Source: Trueperaceae bacterium (lineage in GTDB: Bacteria; Deinococcota; Deinococci; Deinococcales; Trueperaceae). Taken from it: a stretch of 64,000 nucleotides of DNA. The stretch spans positions 4,224,001-4,288,000 of the forward strand of contig OZ243927.1 of the NCBI GenBank assembly GCA_965213925.1, written 5' to 3'. The notes under the pieces are model-generated. The model ran no database searches. It saw only the letters and a program-made list of their open reading frames with translations, and was not told where the DNA came from. This document shows, piece after piece, positions 8,058 to 21,959 of the stretch. How positions within the stretch are numbered: position 1 is the stretch's first letter; each line of letters starts with the position of its first letter. The position numbers and the translations under genes are program-made.

Positions 8058-8063
8058 AGGCTG

Positions 8064-9611
8064 CTAACTCTCCATCCTCAAATTGTAGAATATTTCTAGT
8101 TGGGTTTTAACTTTCTCTCTTAGGTCATTCGTGTCATCTGCCGTTAGAACCTGAAATGACTTGATGTTGAAACCCACGTCCTTTGAGAAATCGCTGCCCG
8201 AAATTGACTTGTTGTGAACCAGTATAAAGTTGTCTTGGCTCAAGCCAGCCCCTTTATTGGCACCCATTAGGTAGCCGATTTCATGATAGACATTTTTGTT
8301 TCCGAGAGAGAGGTCAGCAATAAGTAAGCCGCTGTCGTAAATTAGTTGCAGTATCTCACTATCAATCTCGTAAGAATGCCCTTTAAGATACTCATCAATT
8401 CGTATCTCCCGAAGTTCCAGGTCGAGCTTATGCTCCGTGTTTACGTCATTGACAGCATTCATGATTGCTGTATGGTTCGACTTCGTTTCGGAGCTAAACT
8501 GCATTGAAACGAAAATGGTTCTTTTCTTCGCCTCGAGCACACAATTGAAGATTTTGATGAGTTCTTTAGCGTCGGTGTTTTTGGTTTGATAAAGATGATT
8601 TTTGAGCACCCAGTTTGTAAAAACATTCAAGGTCAACTTAGATTTGAAAGCGTAGTAGATGAACGCAGTGAGTAGCCCCTCGTTAGGGTTCCGATAGAGT
8701 CTTTCGTCGCTATAAATTTCGTTGACCGCAGCCAAATGTTTCTTGAAAACATCCAGCTCATCACCTACCTGTAATAAACCACCGTCTAGCAGAAGTTGAA
8801 ACGAGTTGAGCAGGAAGGTGCGCTTAATGCACGCGCTCTCCTGTGGGTCAAGCACTGCCTTAATGTTTTGCAACATTGATAAATTCCAGCTCAGCAGCAT
8901 CTTTCGCGCTAAGACGTAAGATTCACCGAAGGATTTTCTGAGAACATCGTCAGAGAAAAGCGCTTCGTCTTCGAGAATCAGTTTAAGGCTTTGCTCCATC
9001 GTCAGGGCGATTTGGCGAAAGTTGATGTTGTGAAATAGTGCCCGGCTATACCTCTTCAACTCATCGTCTGACCGAAAAAGAACTAAGCAAAACGGCACGT
9101 TGTAGTTGCTGAACTTCTGACGTAACTCTTCGTCTAAACTGTCGCCATGATTCGTGAGAACGCTTAAACGGTGATTGCCGTCTATACGGTGAAACTTGGA
9201 GAAGTTGCTACTCTCCTCGAGCAGCGCATCATCAATCATCAGCCTTGTCCTTCGAAAGTAAATCTTTGAGCGCAATTCGTTAGGGCTTGAACGGCTTGTG
9301 ATGTAGTCCCTGAGCGTGAACTCAGTAAATTCATGTTTTGCGCCTTTGTCACCCTGCAGCGCTAAAATAAAGTCATTTACTCCGCCCAGATTACTACCGT
9401 CATCTAGGCTTGCTCCTAAGATGACCTCGGGAAAGAAAAGGAAACGCTCCTCATTCAAAAAATCAATCATCTCCTGACGATGCTCCGTAATCAGGTCGCG
9501 CTGATAGCTCTCGTCAGGCGCTGAGATTTTGTCCAAATCCCCCAATGACGCAAAGCCGCGCAAGCAGATGAAGTTACCCAGCGAGTTATCTAAGACCCCT
9601 TCTAAAATCAC
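8064..9611 (-). CDS. DGQHR/DndB-like domain fused to a nucleoside 2-deoxyribosyltransferase/TIR-like domain; putative defence effector
   Basis: N-half has YQR, FPEVIL, IDGNHRL, LFHNIN. C-terminus has IFVSMQF...RIDE...LLIADLSLGNKNVYHEIGY. AT-rich; GTG start overlaps the TGA of the upstream specificity gene. Confidence 0.7.
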   Translation of the reverse strand: MILEGVLDNSLGNFICLRGFASLGDLDKISAPDESYQRDLITEHRQEMIDFLNEERFLFFPEVILGASLDDGSNLGGVNDFILALQGDKGAKHEFTEFTLRDYITSRSSPNELRSKIYFRRTRLMIDDALLEESSNFSKFHRIDGNHRLSVLTNHGDSLDEELRQKFSNYNVPFCLVLFRSDDELKRYSRALFHNINFRQIALTMEQSLKLILEDEALFSDDVLRKSFGESYVLARKMLLSWNLSMLQNIKAVLDPQESACIKRTFLLNSFQLLLDGGLLQVGDELDVFKKHLAAVNEIYSDERLYRNPNEGLLTAFIYYAFKSKLTLNVFTNWVLKNHLYQTKNTDAKELIKIFNCVLEAKKRTIFVSMQFSSETKSNHTAIMNAVNDVNTEHKLDLELREIRIDEYLKGHSYEIDSEILQLIYDSGLLIADLSLGNKNVYHEIGYLMGANKGAGLSQDNFILVHNKSISGSDFSKDVGFNIKSFQVLTADDTNDLREKVKTQLEIFYNLRMES

Positions 9612-11044
9612 GCCGCCTCACCTAAGATCATGGCTTCAACTTCACGCTTAGCTTGCTCTAAAGTATTACTTGCTTCGCCTCGTAACTGCTTTGCCTTGAG
9701 TCTAATTGAAGCTATCTCTTGCGCAATAGTTTGCTGTTCCATAAGAGAGGGTAAAGGAATATTTACCTGCGCAAGCGCATCATTGTTGACACCCGATTGG
9801 TTGTTCCAGTTTGTGCAAATTTTGAAGAAAACTTTTCGCCGCTGATACATATTGAGCAAAGCTGTCAGGTAACGAGGTGAAACTACGTTCTCATTGAGAC
9901 TAATGCGCGTGATGTGATTGGAGCAGAAATAATCACCGTCTAAGTCAAATAGTACAGTTTTTCCCACCAGCTCTTGACTGTTAGTGTTGTTGAAAAGCAC
10001 CTCATTTCGTCTCAGTAAATCGTTTTCATGATGTTCTTTTTGCACGTAGTCAATTAGTACGTTCTTTTCAAATATTAACTCTCTCGCGGGACTGATGTTT
10101 GTAGGACGTATCTGAACAATGCCTTCAGATTGCCTTGCCTGGTCTTGCTTCCCGGCAGCAAAGCCCGTCTGAAGGTGTTGTACAACGTCTTTCAATCGCT
10201 CCATAGGATAAGTCGAGCCTTCAAGCATCTTATAAACACCTTGCGTATGAAATAGCGGGTCTAATCTACTACCCGTAACATCGCTGAGTTTCCGGTAAAA
10301 GACTCGATTCTGCAAATCGTTTTTTTCCTCGAGCGGCTTTTCGATACCTAGAGCCTCGAGCAGGTAATCATCTATCCCATCTAAAAGCTGCTGAGCGGCG
10401 GCTTCTTTTTGTTTTTTCAACTCGTAGGCAGCGTTAATCTTAGCTACTACATTCTCTTGTACCTCTTTTGATGGCAAAGGGATAGGTAGACTTTTATATT
10501 CTTCTGCGTTTATGTTTGGCTGTCCTGCTGCACGTTGCACTGCTTGAACCCACTTCTGATATACGCCAAGCTGAGTGAATGCAAAGAGGTAGTCTGGGCT
10601 TATCAGCTCAGAATTCACAACGAGACGAATCATATAACCAGCAAAAAAACATGGGTAGTCAACTGATTCAGTTTTATGTATGTACGCTTTGCCTACTGTG
10701 GCACCACTCCGAGCGAACAGAAGATCGTTGTTTTCGAGTAGATACTGATCTTCTATAACGTCTGCTGTAACACCAACTTCGTTTCTCAAAAGACCATATT
10801 CATCAACATCCGTAATCCTGATATATCTCGGTTCGTCTAAACTCAATCTTTCTTTCCCCGGCTCATTGGCTCCATACTGAGGTTTCTTCTGTAAAAGCGT
10901 CCCGAGTTTTCTGGGCTCGAACTTGTAGTGCGTAATAGTTCTGTTGTATAGAACCATTAAAGGGTCAAATCTAGCTTGAAGCTCGCTGAGATTAGCTATA
11001 AAAATTTTCGGCTCGTCTGTACTTATTGAAAGCTCAAAACTCAC
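9608..11044 (-). CDS. Restriction-modification specificity subunit (HsdS-like, two target-recognition domains)
   Basis: Two TRDs (YIRITD...DLLFARSGATVGK...QPNIN...PIPLP and IRPTNI...EVLFNNTNSQELVGK...IPLPSLMEQQTI), each followed by a helical conserved region. Confidence 0.9.
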   Translation of the reverse strand: MSFELSISTDEPKIFIANLSELQARFDPLMVLYNRTITHYKFEPRKLGTLLQKKPQYGANEPGKERLSLDEPRYIRITDVDEYGLLRNEVGVTADVIEDQYLLENNDLLFARSGATVGKAYIHKTESVDYPCFFAGYMIRLVVNSELISPDYLFAFTQLGVYQKWVQAVQRAAGQPNINAEEYKSLPIPLPSKEVQENVVAKINAAYELKKQKEAAAQQLLDGIDDYLLEALGIEKPLEEKNDLQNRVFYRKLSDVTGSRLDPLFHTQGVYKMLEGSTYPMERLKDVVQHLQTGFAAGKQDQARQSEGIVQIRPTNISPARELIFEKNVLIDYVQKEHHENDLLRRNEVLFNNTNSQELVGKTVLFDLDGDYFCSNHITRISLNENVVSPRYLTALLNMYQRRKVFFKICTNWNNQSGVNNDALAQVNIPLPSLMEQQTIAQEIASIRLKAKQLRGEASNTLEQAKREVEAMILGEAA

Positions 11045-13173
11045 GCTTGCCCCTGCTCAACAGCCCGAATGAACCTGCTCAACTCCTCACCTATCGCCCC
11101 AAGCTCACTGTTATGCGTCTCTTTACCCGTCGCGTCATAACCGATGTCTTCGGCTATCGCCATGAGTATCGGGTAATCGTCTAAGACCTCTTGTTTGCGC
11201 TCGTCGTAGCTTTCTAGTAGCTCTTCTTTTAGCGCATCTACCTGCTGCCTGTAATATTCGCTCACCTCTTTGCGCCAGTCCTTGTAAGCTTGGTTGTCGC
11301 GTAACGCCTTGCCGCTCAAATCTTGCGCGTTGTCAAAGCCGCGCAGCTCGGCGAGGTGCTGCTTTTTCGCGTCGTCAATCTCTTGTAATCGTTGCAAATA
11401 GTCGTGGTCAGTGAGGATGTCACTCTGCAGGGAGGCTTTTTGCTGTTTGATGCGTTCGGTGGCCGCCTCGTCGTGCTTTCTCAGGAAAAGCACGGAGCTT
11501 TTGACGCCTGCGCCCGTCGCGGTAAAGGCGGTCTGGGGCATACTGACAACGGCTACGACGCGGTACATCTCTTCGATATTGTCGCGTACGTATTGGAGGC
11601 TCGAGTTCGTCAGGATGCCGTCGGGCACGACCATTGCTAAGTAACCGCCCGCTTTTAAGAAGTTGTGACACTGTTCTATAAAGAGAACTTCGGTGCTTTG
11701 GTTGGGGCGCTCGCTGCGCTTGCTCTTGGGGTCGAGCCAGCTCCCTTCTTTGTAGGCAAAGCCGTAGTTGCCCATGTAAGCCTGCTCGGTTTGTTTAACA
11801 ACGGAGCCAAAAGGCGGATTGGTGATGACAAAGTCAAAGGTCCCGTAGGTGAAGCCTTGATTTTTAGTACGGTTGTAGATGTCCTCACCGCTGATGAGCC
11901 CGTCTGCTGCGATGACGTTGGTGTGTCCGTCGTCGTGAATGATCATGTTCATCTTAGCAACCCTAGCGATTTGCTCGTTGATTTCAATACCGAAGAGGTT
12001 TTTCTCGGCGAACGTGTGCCAATGTCGGTAGTGATTTCTACCTTCAGGCGTTTTCTCGTCTCCGATTTCATTAGGGTAGTAATCATCTGCTTCACGTCTT
12101 ACTTTGTCTAGCGCATGAAGTAAAAAACCACCACTACCGCAGGAGGTGTCTAATACTTTTGACGTATGAGTTATAGGTAGCACATCAACAATGAACCTAA
12201 CAATAGGGCGTGGTGTGAAGTACTGTCCAAAATCTCCCCTGAAAAATGACCCCATAAATGTTTCAAAGGCTCGCCCTTTGCTATCTAAGTCAGTTTCTCC
12301 TAAATTTACACTCTGTAAGTACCCCACGACTGTACGTAATTTGTCAGCGCTCAAACGTATGTCTTCCTTAAAGACCTCAGTGTCCCTCTTGCGACCTTCT
12401 TGGTAAAGGGATTCAATCCGTTTAAGTAGCTCTTGATTTGTCTTCCCCTCAGTGTCTTCTTGAAAAATTTGGAACTTATAGGGCTCACCTGATTTACAGT
12501 TTCGCTCATCCCAGATTTTGCAGAAGATGAGTTTATCTAGCTCATCAAAGGCTGACGAAGGGTTGAGTTCGCCGCCACCCCATAAAGCTTGATGTGCTTG
12601 CTTGAAGCACCTAGTTAATTCACCTTCTTCAACCACTTCTAAGTCAAAAAACCTTTGACCGTTCGGAGTTGTACCACCACCCTTGACGTATTTGTACTTC
12701 GCAATATTGGTGACACCGTACTGGGGAATGTCAGGGATGGTCAGACGGTCTTTAGGCTTCTTTTTGGGGACTTCGTAGTAAACATCTTTGATTCCTGACG
12801 TAACCCACACGTACCTAGCGCCCTCAGCTACGGCGTAGCTAAACGCTTGTTCAACGGCTTGCTTGAACTCGAGTTCTGAAACGTCTTCCTTTTTGCACTC
12901 CACAACGATATGAGGAGAAAGGTGCTGGTCATCGTTGTAGACGATGATGTCGGCTTCGCGTTGGCTCGAGCCCATCGTCACGCTCACGAAAGAGCGTATC
13001 CTGTTAGGCGAATATCCGTAGGTGAGAATAAGCTTTAAGAAGGTTTCTGCTTGTACCTTCTCTTCCGGGTTAGCGTAGTTGCGGCGTCTGTTCTCATTCA
13101 GATAAACAACGTTTTTCTTGTCGTTGTCAATTAGAATAAAATTTTGCTTCACACCGTGTTCTATTAGGTTCAT
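11041..13173 (-). CDS. Fused restriction endonuclease (HsdR-N-like PD-(D/E)XK) and N6-adenine methyltransferase
   Basis: N-terminal EEKVQ...EADIIVY...IVVECKK nuclease motif; MTase motifs GQYFTPR, DTSCGSGGFL, NPPF. No helicase or motor domain. Confidence 0.88.
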   Translation of the reverse strand: MNLIEHGVKQNFILIDNDKKNVVYLNENRRRNYANPEEKVQAETFLKLILTYGYSPNRIRSFVSVTMGSSQREADIIVYNDDQHLSPHIVVECKKEDVSELEFKQAVEQAFSYAVAEGARYVWVTSGIKDVYYEVPKKKPKDRLTIPDIPQYGVTNIAKYKYVKGGGTTPNGQRFFDLEVVEEGELTRCFKQAHQALWGGGELNPSSAFDELDKLIFCKIWDERNCKSGEPYKFQIFQEDTEGKTNQELLKRIESLYQEGRKRDTEVFKEDIRLSADKLRTVVGYLQSVNLGETDLDSKGRAFETFMGSFFRGDFGQYFTPRPIVRFIVDVLPITHTSKVLDTSCGSGGFLLHALDKVRREADDYYPNEIGDEKTPEGRNHYRHWHTFAEKNLFGIEINEQIARVAKMNMIIHDDGHTNVIAADGLISGEDIYNRTKNQGFTYGTFDFVITNPPFGSVVKQTEQAYMGNYGFAYKEGSWLDPKSKRSERPNQSTEVLFIEQCHNFLKAGGYLAMVVPDGILTNSSLQYVRDNIEEMYRVVAVVSMPQTAFTATGAGVKSSVLFLRKHDEAATERIKQQKASLQSDILTDHDYLQRLQEIDDAKKQHLAELRGFDNAQDLSGKALRDNQAYKDWRKEVSEYYRQQVDALKEELLESYDERKQEVLDDYPILMAIAEDIGYDATGKETHNSELGAIGEELSRFIRAVEQGQA

Positions 13174-13438
13174 TAGCTTGTAATAATAACGTTTTTGAGC
13201 AGTCCTGGTATCATCTCAAAGATGAAGCAACCATGTTCCTCTCACTATTCCAAGAGTCTCCTACCGTATCTCCCGCGCCAGCAACCCTATTCCTGAAAGG
13301 ACCTCATGACCCGCCAACAGGTCCTCGAGAAAACCAAACACCTCCACGCTTTAGATGACGAGGCGCTCGAGCCAACCAACGCCATCCTCTAAAAAGGCTA
13401 CACTAAGGGCTACAAATACTACCTTCAAGGAGGTCACG

Positions 13439-13698
13439 GTGAAGCGTGTCGGTATCCGCGAATTCAAAGACAAAGCCACACCGCCCTGATTGCCGAAGAG
13501 AAGGGTTTGGTTATCGAGAAGCACGGCAAACCTGTCGGGTTTTATATTCCGCTTCCCAAAAAGGACAAGGTAAAGACGAAAGAGGCGGCGCGGAGGCTCG
13601 AGCACACCATCGAAGGTATTTTAGAGCGCACGGGCATGAACCGCGCCGAACTCGAGGCGGCTTGGGACGAGGCGGAGCGCGTCTCGAGTCTTCAATAA
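13439..13698 (+). pseudogene. Phd/YefM-like antitoxin, frameshifted
   Basis: RBS GGAGG then GTG 13439 reads MKRVGIREFKDKA and stops at 13487-13489. The continuation TALIAEEKGLVIEKHGKPVGFYIP is in another frame, with the break at GCCACACCGCC (about 13475-13485). Confidence 0.7.
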
Positions 13699-13704
13699 AG
13701 TAGA

Positions 13705-14262
13705 ATGAACTCTATGGTAGCAGGCGCACCCAAACACACCTTCACAGCAGATGAATTTCTGCGGCTCGCCGAGCTTAACTTCTTCGGTGAGGGCGAGCGC
13801 GTCGAGCTTTTAGAGGGGGAAATCTACCACATGTCGCCTACCGGTCCTTCTCACGGCGCGGCAGTAGCTCGCCTTCACGAGCGTTTACTCCTTGCCCTTG
13901 TCGGGCGTACCATCCTCTGGAACCAGTCCTCGGTACGTTTGGGTATATCTATGCCAGAACCCGACTTAGCGCTTCTAGTACCTAAAGCTGACTACTACGC
14001 AAGCGCAAATCCTGAACCGGAGGACATTTTGCTTGTAATTGAGGTGGCGCAAACCTCTTTAGCCTACGACCGCGCTAAGCTCGCTATTTACGCTCGTAAC
14101 GGCGTGCAAGAGGTGTGGATTGCTGACCTTGATGGTGAGTTGCTCGAGGTCTACCGAGAACCGGGCGCGGGTACGTATAGAACTTCGTTCGCCCTGAACT
14201 TCAACGAACCGCTGAGTCCGCTCGCGTTTCCTGATGAAGCTGGGGTGTGGTTGGGTCAATAG
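13705..14262 (+). CDS. Uma2 family (DUF820) putative endonuclease
   Basis: FTADEF, RVELLEGEI, PEPDL, LLVIEVAQTSLAYDR, KLAIYARNGVQEVWIADL. Confidence 0.92.
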   Translation: MNSMVAGAPKHTFTADEFLRLAELNFFGEGERVELLEGEIYHMSPTGPSHGAAVARLHERLLLALVGRTILWNQSSVRLGISMPEPDLALLVPKADYYASANPEPEDILLVIEVAQTSLAYDRAKLAIYARNGVQEVWIADLDGELLEVYREPGAGTYRTSFALNFNEPLSPLAFPDEAGVWLGQ

Positions 14263-19454: not shown

Positions 19455-20303
19455 TTAATGACCTCGAGCAAGAAGGTCGGCTAGTTGGTTTTTGTCTACG
19501 AACCCGTGTAAATTTTTTAGGGCAAACTGCCGGAAAGTATCGTTTCCCAGCTCCATCTTTCTGGCTATGCTCAGGTCTAAATACTCTTTTTCCTTGTCTA
19601 TGCCGAGGAATCTTCGGTTTAGTAAATTTGCGGCAATACCTGTTGTGCTACTTCCGGTAAACGGGTCTAAAATCCACGCTCCTTGTCTGCTCGAGGCGAG
19701 AGTGAGACGCGCTAGAACCGCTAGTGGTTTTTGCGTCGGATGCTTGCCGCAGCCTTTCTCCCACTTGGCTAGAGCAGGCATCCTCCACACATCTTTCATC
19801 TGCTTTCCGCTGTTCAACTCTTTCATCAAATCGTAGTTGTAGTAGTGCGGTATATCAGCGTGCTTTCTAGCCCAAATAATCTGCTCTGTAGAGTGCGTAA
19901 AGTAACGGCAGGAGAAGTTAGGAGGTGGATTGGTTTTTTCCCAAGTTATGACGTTAAGTATTTTGAAATCAAGCTCTCTTAAAACCCGTCCAACTTCAAA
20001 TATGTTGTGCATCGTTCCGCTGACCCAAAGAGTTGCATCTTCTTTCATCTTTTGGCGGACCAATGAAAGCCAAGTTTTATTGAACTCGTATATCGCTTCG
20101 AGACCTGCTGATTTGTCCCAAGCACCTTTATTTACGCTTACGACTTTTCCATTTTTGACAGTTAAACCGTCGTTGGAAAGAAAATAAGGTGGGTCAGCAA
20201 ATACTAAGTCGAACTTATGGTCGAACCTCTCAAGTAACTCAAAAGAATCTCCATGCAACAGCGTGAAATGTTTGTCCGCCGATTTATAGTAGGCTTCTAT
20301 CAC
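19455..20303 (-). CDS. Beta-class amino-methyltransferase (N4/N6), DpnA-like
   Basis: FADPPYFLSN precedes HPTQKP and LDPFTGSSTTG; WEKTNPPPNFSCRYFTHSTE resembles DpnA-type GATC MTases. Confidence 0.9.
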   Translation of the reverse strand: MIEAYYKSADKHFTLLHGDSFELLERFDHKFDLVFADPPYFLSNDGLTVKNGKVVSVNKGAWDKSAGLEAIYEFNKTWLSLVRQKMKEDATLWVSGTMHNIFEVGRVLRELDFKILNVITWEKTNPPPNFSCRYFTHSTEQIIWARKHADIPHYYNYDLMKELNSGKQMKDVWRMPALAKWEKGCGKHPTQKPLAVLARLTLASSRQGAWILDPFTGSSTTGIAANLLNRRFLGIDKEKEYLDLSIARKMELGNDTFRQFALKNLHGFVDKNQLADLLARGH

Positions 20304-20908
20304 TACAAATCAATGATCGTTTTTAGGAAGGGTACTCGAGCGTAAAAGGCTCTCGTCGTACTTCCGTGCCCTGTCCCCTTCGTTCTAGGTTGTATATACT
20401 TGCCCATTTTCCCGCTTAACTTGTCAAAGCCTTCTTCTGTGATTACTTTTCTGACTAAATCATAGTCTGCTTTCACTTGTGCGTATACTTCAGGATCATC
20501 GAGGTCAAAAGTGTGAATGCCGTAGAGAGTAGAGGTTGGCTCATCTACGCTTTCCCAAATTCTCGAAGCTATGAGTCCCTTTTGCATCTTTGCTAATAAG
20601 TGGCTCTTTTCAAAAGGGGTATTGCGGACATTGTAAGCATCAATTTTCGTAATGGACAATGTTTCCTTGACGGTCAAAGTGCCTGATTTGAGATACTTTA
20701 ACGAAGCAGTTTTCAGCTCCCAGGAGCCAAAATTCGGAGATTGAGCCGAGTTTAGCGGAAGCCCTAAATAACGTTCGATAACATGTCCCGCCCAACCCTT
20801 ATTCTTTTTTCCCTCTTTGAACACAGTGACCTCGTATTTCTCAGCCATTGCTCTCAAATCTCTACCCTTGATCTTGTCAAGCAACACTATTGCTTCTTCC
20901 CGCTCCAC
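20303..20908 (-). CDS. MutH/Sau3AI-family endonuclease (single domain, 201 aa)
   Basis: NKGWAGHVIERYLG...SPNFGSWELKT...KETLSIT...YIQPRTKG...RAFYAR parallels the MutH motifs KGW.G..E, ELK, ET, QxRxK, FY. Confidence 0.85.
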   Translation of the reverse strand: MEREEAIVLLDKIKGRDLRAMAEKYEVTVFKEGKKNKGWAGHVIERYLGLPLNSAQSPNFGSWELKTASLKYLKSGTLTVKETLSITKIDAYNVRNTPFEKSHLLAKMQKGLIASRIWESVDEPTSTLYGIHTFDLDDPEVYAQVKADYDLVRKVITEEGFDKLSGKMGKYIQPRTKGTGHGSTTRAFYARVPFLKTIIDL

Positions 20909-21816
20909 TAAAACCGCTCTCCAAAATTCGCGATTAGCAGTTCAGATAGTTTCCCTCGACCGGACGCTTTGGAATTGATAGCTCTATTTGCCATAACCCG
21001 TGATACGTTATGATTCGAATACAAGCTATCAAAAAATTCATCTTGGGTCTCTTGAGTTTTCACATCTGAGTTGCTAAGCAGCCATTTGCAGCCTTTTGCG
21101 TCCAAGAGGTCGCAGAATTCTTTCAAGCGCACTTGCTCACTGTCGTTAAAGACTCCATGAGAGTAAGCGTTGAAACTAGAGGTCTTGCTAATAGGTTTAT
21201 ACGGAGGATCAAGATAAACGAAGGTTTCTTCAGTCACATGCTCTAAGACAATTTCATAGTCCCCATGTAGTATCTCTACGTTTTGCAACCGCTCATGAAC
21301 AATAAGCAAGTTGGTTTCGTCGCAAATTGTTGGATTCTTGTAGCTACCTATAGGAACATTGAACATATTTTTTCTATTGACTCTGTAAAGTCCATTGAAG
21401 CAAGTCTTATTGAGGAAAATAAACAACGCTGCTTGCGTAGTGTTATCAGAGGTGCGCGAATTGTATAACTCTCGTTGTGAGTAATAAAATTTGCTTCGTT
21501 CTTTAGGTTTTTCCGAAAGCGTATCGTACAGCTTCTGCCACTTTTTTAGCGGCTCGATAACTGCATCAACATCCTGAGCGATACACCTGTAGGTGTTGAT
21601 TAAGTCGGCGTTTATGTCGTTAATAACAACGTTTCTAACATTTGGGTAGTTGTTGAGTATCCAAAATAAAACTGAACCTCCGCCAACGAACGGTTCAATA
21701 TACGTGAAGCTTGCTTGATGAGAATATGGCATTCTGCGAGCGATAGCGTCTAAAAGTTGCGTCTTCCCGCCTGCCCATTTCAAAAAGGGTTTTGCGTTAG
21801 CAAAAAGATTGAGCAT
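20908..21816 (-). CDS. Dam/DpnM-like alpha-class DNA adenine methyltransferase
   Basis: [40 protein letters not shown]. An alternative start lies at 21831. Confidence 0.93.
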
Positions 21817-21959
21817 GTTGCAACTTACCATCTTACGCGGTTAAGACAGCGAGCGGACGTGCGCATACATCAACCTCTCGACTTCCGCGCTATACTTCTC
21901 TATCTCGAGCCCCAAGTCGGCTCTTCTTTTTTACCCTTTCTAATCTTGGAGTAACACCT

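Follow-up and report, generated by a model that had tools for sequence, protein, structure and literature searches.

The window analyzed here is a stretch of 64,000 nucleotides from contig OZ243927.1 of a Trueperaceae bacterium. On its minus strand, a gene called X in the following codes for a protein with an N-terminal domain of the DGQHR-type ParB/Srx fold, a helical middle and a C-terminal domain resembling nucleoside 2-deoxyribosyltransferases (NDT), DNPH1 and TIR proteins. It is the last gene of a co-directional operon, in which it is preceded by M, encoding a nuclease-methyltransferase, and S, encoding a specificity subunit, with successive overlaps of 4 nucleotides (Table 1). No HsdR is encoded in this three-gene island, and the rest of the genome was not searched for HsdR. 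The original prediction, which described X without its context, had missed this HsdR-less operon.

The S protein matched Methylase_S of Pfam in two stretches (E 2.8e-20) and the PADLOC model Specificity_I (E 1.9e-52), and M matched the PADLOC MTase_I model PDLC03030 with 649 bits. In the PD-(D/E)xK domain of M, the residues D75, E92, C93, and K94 are invariant in 65/65 full-length M proteins (that of the window and those of 64 related loci), so that this nuclease domain looks active and, as far as the sequence tells, intact.

The three genes lie in an island with a guanine-plus-cytosine (GC) content of 0.43-0.52, compared to 0.57-0.62 in the flanks, which begins one base past the stop codon of purF. 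In a genome of the same genus (L089) the interval between purF and the Uma2-family gene measures 1.4 kb and comprises an unknown open reading frame (ORF) of 227 amino acids, an ORF of 73 amino acids and a PIN-domain ORF. Between this genome and the window, homology breaks off at window position 8058 and is found again from 13295 on (slot region 8058-13704), with an 80-nucleotide remnant of similarity at 13295-13371. Among 364 genomes of the phylum, X was detected in that of the window only, and a sample of 301 genomes from an unrelated order with another carrier gave a single one with X. The M-S-X cassette is a horizontally acquired island. At its right edge, an 85 amino acids long ORF without an assigned family (13446-13703, plus strand) lies directly before the Uma2-family gene, which encodes a putative endonuclease (13705-14262, plus strand). 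Scans for promoters and terminators gave counts no higher than those in shuffled sequences, and no tRNA was found by a scan of the window. Among public sequencing runs, two DNA runs of one study contain words of the window, two others with the same species label contain next to none, and no RNA run with such words is listed.

Table 1. Positions of the M-S-X genes, their domains and motifs in the window.
Feature	Position	Strand	Description
Gene X	8064..9611	minus	515 amino acids; ParB/DndB-like, helical and NDT/TIR-like parts; stop codon 8064-8066
X residues 1-205	8997..9611	minus	DGQHR-type ParB/Srx domain
X residues 206-355	8547..8996	minus	all-helical middle domain, no assigned family
X residues 356-515	8067..8546	minus	NDT/DNPH1/TIR-like flavodoxin-fold domain
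YQR, X residues 36-38	9498-9506	minus	read from translation
FFPEVIL, X residues 59-65	9417-9437	minus	read from translation
IDGNHRL, X residues 143-149	9165-9185	minus	read from translation
LFHNIN, X residues 192-197	9021-9038	minus	read from translation
IFVSMQF, X residues 366-372	8496-8516	minus	read from translation
IADLSLGNKNVYHEIGY, X residues 431-447	8271-8321	minus	read from translation
Glu444 codon of X	8280-8282	minus	putative catalytic residue
Gene S	9608..11044	minus	478 amino acids; HsdS-like specificity subunit with two target-recognition domains
Gene M	11041..13173	minus	710 amino acids; nuclease-methyltransferase
M residues ~36-150	12724-13068	minus	HSDR_N_2 PD-(D/E)xK domain; Pfam E 2.2e-16
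M residues ~297-643	11245-12285	minus	N6-adenine methyltransferase; N6_Mtase E 5.7e-37; NPPF at 452-455
Low-GC island with M, S, X	8059..13294	.	variable slot between purF and a Uma2-family gene; about 5.2 kb

Conserved features of the X protein

Gene X starts with GTG. This start is supported, since the N-terminus of X aligns with the methionine starts of its homologs (MILEGVLD...). A word-indexed search revealed 1130 homologs at E<=0.001 among 8000 scored candidates, and nearly all of the 120 matches listed are about 500 amino acids long with a query coverage of 97-100%. In an exhaustive HMMER search of 1.84 billion cluster representatives, 518 relatives were found at E<=0.001, including 166 at E<=1e-30. 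With 518 family representatives at 50% clustering, the domain fusion, which had been taken for an unusual one, is instead a fixed architecture. Fused forms of 903-2575 amino acids were searched for and none was found, which is weak evidence. Members of the family are named "hypothetical", "DGQHR domain-containing" or "DndB" in the databases, and PADLOC v2.0.0 has no model covering the whole of X. A profile of the whole protein gave no match to the sequences of the PDB at E<=10, and Foldseek with the model of whole X none at E<=0.001.

The conservation of X was analyzed in an alignment of 75 sequences with 28-56% identity, consisting of the window protein and 74 ORFs of at least 440 amino acids from 80 related loci. 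All motifs which the original prediction had listed are present in the translation and are invariant or nearly so among these full-length relatives. In the N-terminal domain Q37, R38, F59, P61, E62, R142, D144, G145, N146, H147, R148, F193, N197, and E206 are identical in 75/75. The motifs of the C-terminal domain are less strictly conserved, with F367 in 75/75, N440, V441, and E444 in 74/75 each and G446 in 73/75. In the one deviating sequence, N440 is replaced by a threonine, and V441 and E444 fall into a gap. D433 is an aspartate in 65 sequences and an asparagine in 10. The asparagine of DGNHR, regarded before as a variant with a Q-to-N exchange that may alter the nucleotide preference, is present in 75/75 and is therefore a fixed character of the family and no local substitution.

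By their description, DGQHR domains are marked by a QR pair, a nearly invariant DGQHR pentapeptide and an FxxxN motif (PMC4619093). In the X family, QR and FxxxN are kept in 75/75, as is the pentapeptide in the form DGNHR with the glutamine replaced. Additionally, 92 diverse members of the family were scanned singly with the Pfam and PADLOC models at E<=0.05. Pfam DndB was matched by 27/92 members (best 5e-9) and GmrSD_N by 9/92, whereas PADLOC DpdB was matched by 7/92 and PADLOC DndB by 2/92. In the members inspected, the DndB match covers the ParB/Srx core of the profile (positions 35-155 of 338), and with 14.6-28.3 bits it stays just under the gathering cut-off of 29.1.

A model of residues 1-355 was obtained with a mean predicted local distance difference test (pLDDT) score of 87.0. 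The best fold neighbors of its N-terminal domain are all of the ParB/Srx type: ParB-N (5k5d, Z 5.6), PadC (6ryk, Z 5.4), and BrxU (7p9k, Z 5.3), followed by KorB (8qa8, Z 4.6), sulfiredoxins (Z 4.3 for 6ky4 and Z 4.0), and SspE (Z 4.0). The top rank in Foldseek is taken by the ParB structure 7bm8 (E 0.011). Rows with a PAS-like fold at a Z of about 4 are due to a beta-rich insert at about residues 70-135. The assignment to ParB/DndB is regarded as sound at the level of the superfamily, and comes mostly from the sequence and weakly from the fold. The family scans and fold matches of X revealed neither a helix-turn-helix nor any other classical DNA-binding domain. The lack of dnd genes, which had been noted for the window, extends further, as DndD (TIGR03185) was unmatched at E<=0.001 in the whole genome, which is 96.9% complete. 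DndE (PF08870) was unmatched in the genome as well, which is weak evidence given that the same control was silent in all 14 control genomes.

The middle part of X forms helices at about residues 205-355 in both models, and residues 206-355 yielded non-specific helical fold matches only (Z about 5 or less). The C-terminal part was matched by the Pfam family Nuc_deoxyrib_tr (PF05014) in 43/92 members (best 9.5e-9); two of these matches were inspected and reach 27.8 and 23.0 bits, just under the cut-off of 28.8. Furthermore, a PADLOC effector model described as TIR was matched by 66/92 members (best 3.4e-13) and covers the entire C-terminal domain in those inspected. The only TIR-type matches in Pfam are those of 9/92 members to the CAP12/Pycsar TIR family (CAP12-PCTIR_TIR). 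A profile of the C-terminal domain built from 29 sequences was compared to the sequences of all PDB chains and gave 8 matches at E<=10 (best E 0.0012), all of which are NDTs. In the alignment to these enzymes, E444 of X falls on the Glu of FEVG/VELG/FELGY, the NDT nucleophile (Glu98 of the Lactobacillus enzyme), IADL falls on the IADLS of trypanosomatid enzymes, the Asp of IRID on the Asp of PTD, and GFN on PLN.

The fold points to the same families. The model of whole X (pLDDT 82.6) found TIR and NDT-family chains at Z 9.3-11.8 in a search of a representative set, with other flavodoxin-like folds close behind (Z 9-10). When the 1000 best Foldseek matches were rescored by fold, the top 50 consisted exclusively of DNPH1/Rcl, SPARTA TIR-APAZ, plant and STING TIRs and one NDT. 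The C-terminal domain fits best to DNPH1/Rcl, including entries with bound 5-hydroxymethyldeoxyuridine monophosphate (5hmdUMP), at Z 12.9 and a root-mean-square deviation (rmsd) of 2.6 over 121 residues, followed by SPARTA TIR-APAZ at Z 12.7; the NDT scores Z 11.0. Taken by group, the SPARTA, plant and STING TIRs reach Z 11-12.7 and NDT, DNPH1, and MilB Z 9.3-12.9. The flavodoxin-like fold and the aligned Glu, kept in 74/75, are both traits of the NDT family. The C-terminal domain is a predicted N-glycosidase module of the NDT/DNPH1/TIR type with a conserved Glu, which may work like any of these branches. A search for short proteins resembling this domain gave 41 matches, which are mostly fragment-like, and no clear stand-alone family. 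This way, the architecture read earlier from the letters of X, i.e., a DGQHR/DndB-type ParB/Srx domain, a helical middle and an NDT/TIR-like domain, is recovered in all three parts.

Distribution of the M-S-X trio

In a scan of one genome per species, 209 X loci were confirmed and 80 of them were kept for analysis, with their gene contents called by BLASTP against the proteins of the window. According to the record titles, the carriers belong to Alpha-, Beta-, and Gammaproteobacteria, Desulfobacterales, Clostridia, Bacteroidota, Verrucomicrobiota, Phycisphaerae, Thermotoga, Gracilibacteria, Gastranaerophilales, and Kiritimatiellota, and also include a spirochaete. A co-directional M, with N-terminal domain and methyltransferase core, together with S was identified within 4.5 kb of X in 62/80 loci, and two further loci have the M core and S. 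Seven loci have M, with S undetectable by BLAST; in their ORF maps, the cluster contains either an ORF of the size of S or a fusion of M and S. One locus is fragmented, six have less than 1.3 kb of upstream sequence, and in another one (L058) the ORF of X was not called by the ORF finder. The last of the 80 (L060:1971-9467) carries a canonical HsdM-HsdS-HsdR set upstream of X, comprising an HsdM with an HsdM_N domain, HsdS and an HsdR of 1059 amino acids. No other of the 80 loci has an HsdR-like ORF.

The gene order is M-S-X except in six loci with the order M-X-S. Five of these group in one clade of the X tree (support 0.998), and the sixth is placed separately. The order has changed to M-X-S twice independently, and the trio was kept together. 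M and S are fused in two loci (L005 and L020). With a mean pairwise identity of 0.54, M is more conserved than X with 0.35. The divergence of the two proteins is correlated over 62 loci (r 0.78), a value reached by 0/999 permutations, and M proteins with at least 45% identity are always accompanied by X. The genes occasionally inserted into or flanking the trio, which are typical cargo of defense islands, encode Mrr_cat with HARE-HTH (12 loci), NucS/DUF5655 (7 loci), Ymh/HEPN (6 loci), and GmrSD (5 loci).

X is rare on viral contigs, with 4 loci in 2.9 million. The order M-X-S or M-S-X is seen in two of them, a third is truncated and the fourth is odd. A viral-contig locus (L087:129-8578) encodes a 1016 amino acids long protein with an RdRP-family match, an unknown protein of 280 amino acids and a fusion protein of 649 amino acids before X, and an Mrr_cat endonuclease after it. 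The 649-residue protein combines the sigma-70 regions 2 and 4 with a Type I specificity (target-recognition) domain. On a Leisingera plasmid (L088:3864-6107), a single coding sequence for 747 amino acids, annotated as "N-6 DNA methylase", joins part of M (about residues 110-487) to part of X (residues 140-511). An S gene is missing there, and the chimera has probably arisen from the cassette by deletion.

Among 72,556 plasmid records X was matched in one. M proteins of the same architecture with 25-32% identity were found on plasmids without X and with other partners. In Flammeovirga, M and S are followed by an ABC-ATPase/OLD-TOPRIM protein, and on a Klebsiella plasmid by a gene for an unknown 263-residue protein and two DUF262 (ParB-like) genes, while an Acidithiobacillus plasmid carries an M-S fusion alone. 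The two plasmid loci L082:5929-11311 and L083:5848-13593 comprise distant pairs of a PD-ExK-methyltransferase and S with other third genes, one having the ABC-ATPase/OLD-TOPRIM protein and the other the 263-residue protein and the two DUF262 genes. Such distant M-S pairs with other third genes, together with the likeness to the MADS system discussed below, suggest an effector slot, i.e., that the methylating and recognizing core takes alternative third modules, of which X is one.

Elsewhere in the window, a second low-GC island (0.42-0.46) was found at 19455-21831 on the minus strand. Its three genes encode an N6_N4 methyltransferase of 282 amino acids, a MutH/MvaI-like endonuclease of 201 amino acids and a D12 Dam-class methyltransferase of 307 amino acids, and the island resembles a Type II system of the DpnII/MboI type with a pair of methylases.

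Proposed function and rival explanations

X is tentatively read as the effector of a three-gene, HsdR-less and methylation-guided defense cassette, namely as an N-glycosidase gated by a nucleoside triphosphate (NTP). With somewhat more reserve, the trio may be seen as a new class of methylation-guided immunity, in which a ParB-like NTP-gated clamp and an N-glycosidase would replace the motor-nuclease HsdR. The response to an unmethylated site recognized by M and S would then be the cleavage of glycosidic bonds in place of translocation and cutting of DNA, either depleting nicotinamide adenine dinucleotide (NAD+) or nucleotides or excising bases from the invading DNA, and X would be essential. 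The core of this reading, an NTP switch controlling a nucleotide-cleaving effector, had already been put forward in the original prediction and is a plausible conjecture.

An M2S-type complex would methylate a bipartite site in the host DNA and recognize the unmethylated site on invading DNA, where X would be recruited or released. An NTP bound at the DGNHR pocket may then close or dimerize the ParB-like domains, in analogy to the switches of the ParB family, for which NTP-driven closure and dimerization are established. Active sites of NDT enzymes and TIR effectors require oligomers, and the dimerization of the ParB-like domains would join two C-terminal domains to an active N-glycosidase. 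This enzyme may hydrolyze NAD+ or a (deoxy)nucleotide and halt the replication of the phage, and the PD-(D/E)xK domain of M may cut DNA in parallel. Judged from the alignment, the conservation of E444 (74/75) as well as D144, H147, and R148 (75/75 each) speaks for a catalytically competent X. Related effectors are known from retrons. The NDT-like effector of retron Ec86 was reported to deplete NAD+ (PMC13276650), and type II retron effectors were described as an NDT with a DNA-binding domain (PMC7736814).

Several points weigh against this reading. Since M brings along a nuclease domain that appears to be intact, M and S might suffice as a restriction enzyme without any need for X. The sequence profiles of the C-terminal domain favor deoxyribosyltransferases (43/92 in Pfam and 8/8 in the PDB) over NADases, and the known substrates of deoxyribosyltransferases are deoxynucleosides or deoxynucleoside monophosphates (dNMP), not NAD+. 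Two candidate substrate-binding positions vary, as N482 is an asparagine in 43 and an aspartate in 31 of the 75 aligned sequences and D406 is kept in just 45/75. The window protein has no match in Pfam or NCBIfam, including Nuc_deoxyrib_tr, the Pfam matches of the six members inspected are all under the gathering cut-offs, and the fold matches of the N-terminal domain are weak, none of them reaching Z 8. The co-occurrence and co-divergence of operon neighbors like M and X are no proof of an interaction, as shared ancestry alone can yield co-divergence, and in the viral-contig locus L087 no M-like methyltransferase was detected within 6 kb of X. The effector role, NTP binding, glycosidase activity, contact of X with M and S and the defense function are all predictions.

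A different role in the same cassette, although unlikely, would be that of a stand-alone nucleotide-pool enzyme riding along as a second layer. The ParB-like domain would bind or hydrolyze a (modified) deoxynucleoside triphosphate and the DNPH1-like domain would strip the base from the resulting dNMP. Phage nucleotides would be depleted or destroyed, e.g., hydroxymethylated ones which let phage DNA escape restriction. DNPH1 with its 5hmdUMP-bound entries is the best fold match, the profile matches in Pfam and the PDB lead to deoxyribosyltransferases, and M carries a nuclease domain of its own. Moreover, Type IV enzymes directed against modified DNA are frequent neighbors (GmrSD in 5 loci, Mrr_cat in 12), and a degradation of nucleotides was proposed for ParB-superfamily proteins of conflict systems (PMC10853773). 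However, an independent enzyme should wander among defense islands, whereas X is tied to one clade of M and has translationally coupled overlaps. The beta1 loop of X (FVSMQF) is also presumably unlike the glycine-rich phosphate loop of DNPH1.

That X acts on DNA itself seems quite improbable. In this case the ParB-like NTPase would load onto or open the DNA at sites marked by M and S and the NDT-like domain would excise or exchange a base, making X a restriction glycosylase or a second DNA modification enzyme. NDTs exchange bases on deoxyribose via a Glu nucleophile (Porter et al. 1995, by its title among the references of PMC3710099). PADLOC DpdB was matched by 7/92 members of the X family, and a precedent is given by the ParB-like ATPase DpdB, which helps the transglycosylase DpdA (PMC12839542). 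Anantharaman et al. propose that NDT domains in Abi fusions attack DNA (PMC3710099). Against this, no NDT-family enzyme acting on polymeric DNA is among the fold matches of X, the acidic D433 is retained and would presumably, by comparison with NDT structures, sit near backbone phosphates, and the methyltransferase already supplies the mark of the system. Very doubtful is the view of X as a regulator, i.e., a DndB-like DNA-binding repressor or governor of modification, whose NDT/TIR-like domain would be a ligand sensor of the SLOG/TPALS kind. It would suit the stricter conservation of the N-terminal motifs, and a language-model look-alike search with X, in which all scores are at or below 0.89, gave the Cap17-like_N cluster at 0.88 as a lead only. 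DndB is also described as an ATP-modulated negative regulator of its own operon (PMC10853773; PMC4507180). On the other hand, 73-74/75 sequences retain the Glu and the N-V-x-x-E-x-G core, as expected of a catalytic site, a classical DNA-binding domain like a helix-turn-helix was not found in X by the scans described above, and it would be unusual for a regulator of 515 residues to be encoded last in the operon with translational coupling.

X is a real, widely conserved and unstudied protein. The literature searches, with subscription journals and supplements outside their scope, revealed no paper describing the X fusion or the M-S-X trio. The repertoire of the ParB fold beyond chromosome segregation is being charted, and the excerpt of that survey of fusions mentions neither a TIR or deoxyribosyltransferase partner nor an X-like fusion (10.1101/2025.10.10.680097). 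The trio is a candidate for a defense of the restriction-modification type whose third component is new, and there is a real chance that it represents a new class of effector coupling. Restriction-modification is a textbook defense and its effector is, to our knowledge, always a nuclease. If the reading of X as a gated glycosidase effector is true, methylation-based defense would gain a new output in the combination of a ParB-type nucleotide switch and an NDT/TIR-type glycosidase. Epigenetic discrimination of self and non-self would be linked with abortive infection by the depletion of NAD+ or nucleotides, two fields so far separate, and the ParB-fold repertoire would gain a member with a fixed DGNHR pocket. 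With three genes and 5.2 kb the system is small and hence tractable.

Comparison with known systems

The DndB/DGQHR proteins (PF14072, TIGR03187), including DpdB, share with X a ParB/Srx-type domain with QR, DGxHR, and FxxxN. X differs from them by DGNHR (75/75), by the C-terminal NDT/TIR-like domain and by its operon with methyltransferase and specificity genes, with no dnd or dpd genes nearby. An identification as DndB proper was rejected, as such a gene has dndCDE neighbors, whereas X neighbors M and S in a genome without a DndD match. GmrSD, BrxU, and SspE, in which a DUF262 ParB-like NTPase is combined with a nuclease, are similar to X in having an N-terminal ParB-like NTP-binding domain, a helical linker, a C-terminal effector and a defense context. 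However, their effector is an HNH/DUF1524 nuclease and that of X a domain of the N-glycosidase type, their motif is DGQQR instead of DGNHR, and they act alone on modified DNA, whereas X is tied to a methyltransferase.

M and S match the models of the corresponding subunits of classical Type I restriction-modification systems. This class was rejected for the cassette, as the three-gene island has no HsdR and an HsdR-like ORF was found in 1/80 related loci. Type IIB enzymes like BcgI, with an N-terminal PD-(D/E)xK nuclease, a gamma-type N6-adenine methyltransferase and a separate specificity subunit of two domains, are compatible in architecture with M and S of the window. These enzymes cut on both sides of their site and are not known to have a third ParB-glycosidase gene.

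M and S are likewise similar to MAD2 and MAD5 from the MADS system (mad1-8) with 304 and 92 bits, the NCBIfam cut-offs being 720 and 400, and X itself has no match among the PADLOC mad models. Methylation of bipartite sites marks self in MADS and separate modules execute the defense (10.1101/2023.03.30.534895; PMC13662399). According to the first of these sources, MAD6, MAD7, and MAD8 are mandatory and the deletion of mad5 is lethal. Membership in MADS was rejected, because the mandatory MAD6-8 as well as MAD3/4 are absent from the island and the scores of M and S are far under the cut-offs. The related MAD2 and MAD5 proteins are paired with separate nuclease modules, and the discrimination of self and non-self by N6-methyladenine at bipartite sites, as in MADS and Type I systems, is the logic which would be expected for the cassette of the window.

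Finally, the C-terminal domain of X has its fold in common with the NDT/DNPH1 (Rcl) family PF05014, to which its Glu and the Asp of IADL align, and differs from it by the fusion to a ParB-like module and the location in a defense operon. The same fold is found in the TIR NADase effectors of SPARTA (TIR-APAZ) and CBASS/Pycsar and in the NDT-like effector of type II retrons. There, an Argonaute, a cyclic-nucleotide sensor or multicopy single-stranded DNA (msDNA) serves as sensor, whereas the sensor of X would be the methyltransferase-specificity complex together with a ParB-like NTP switch. X is predicted to resemble these effectors in their logic, by which a nucleic-acid-sensing module switches on a glycosidase.

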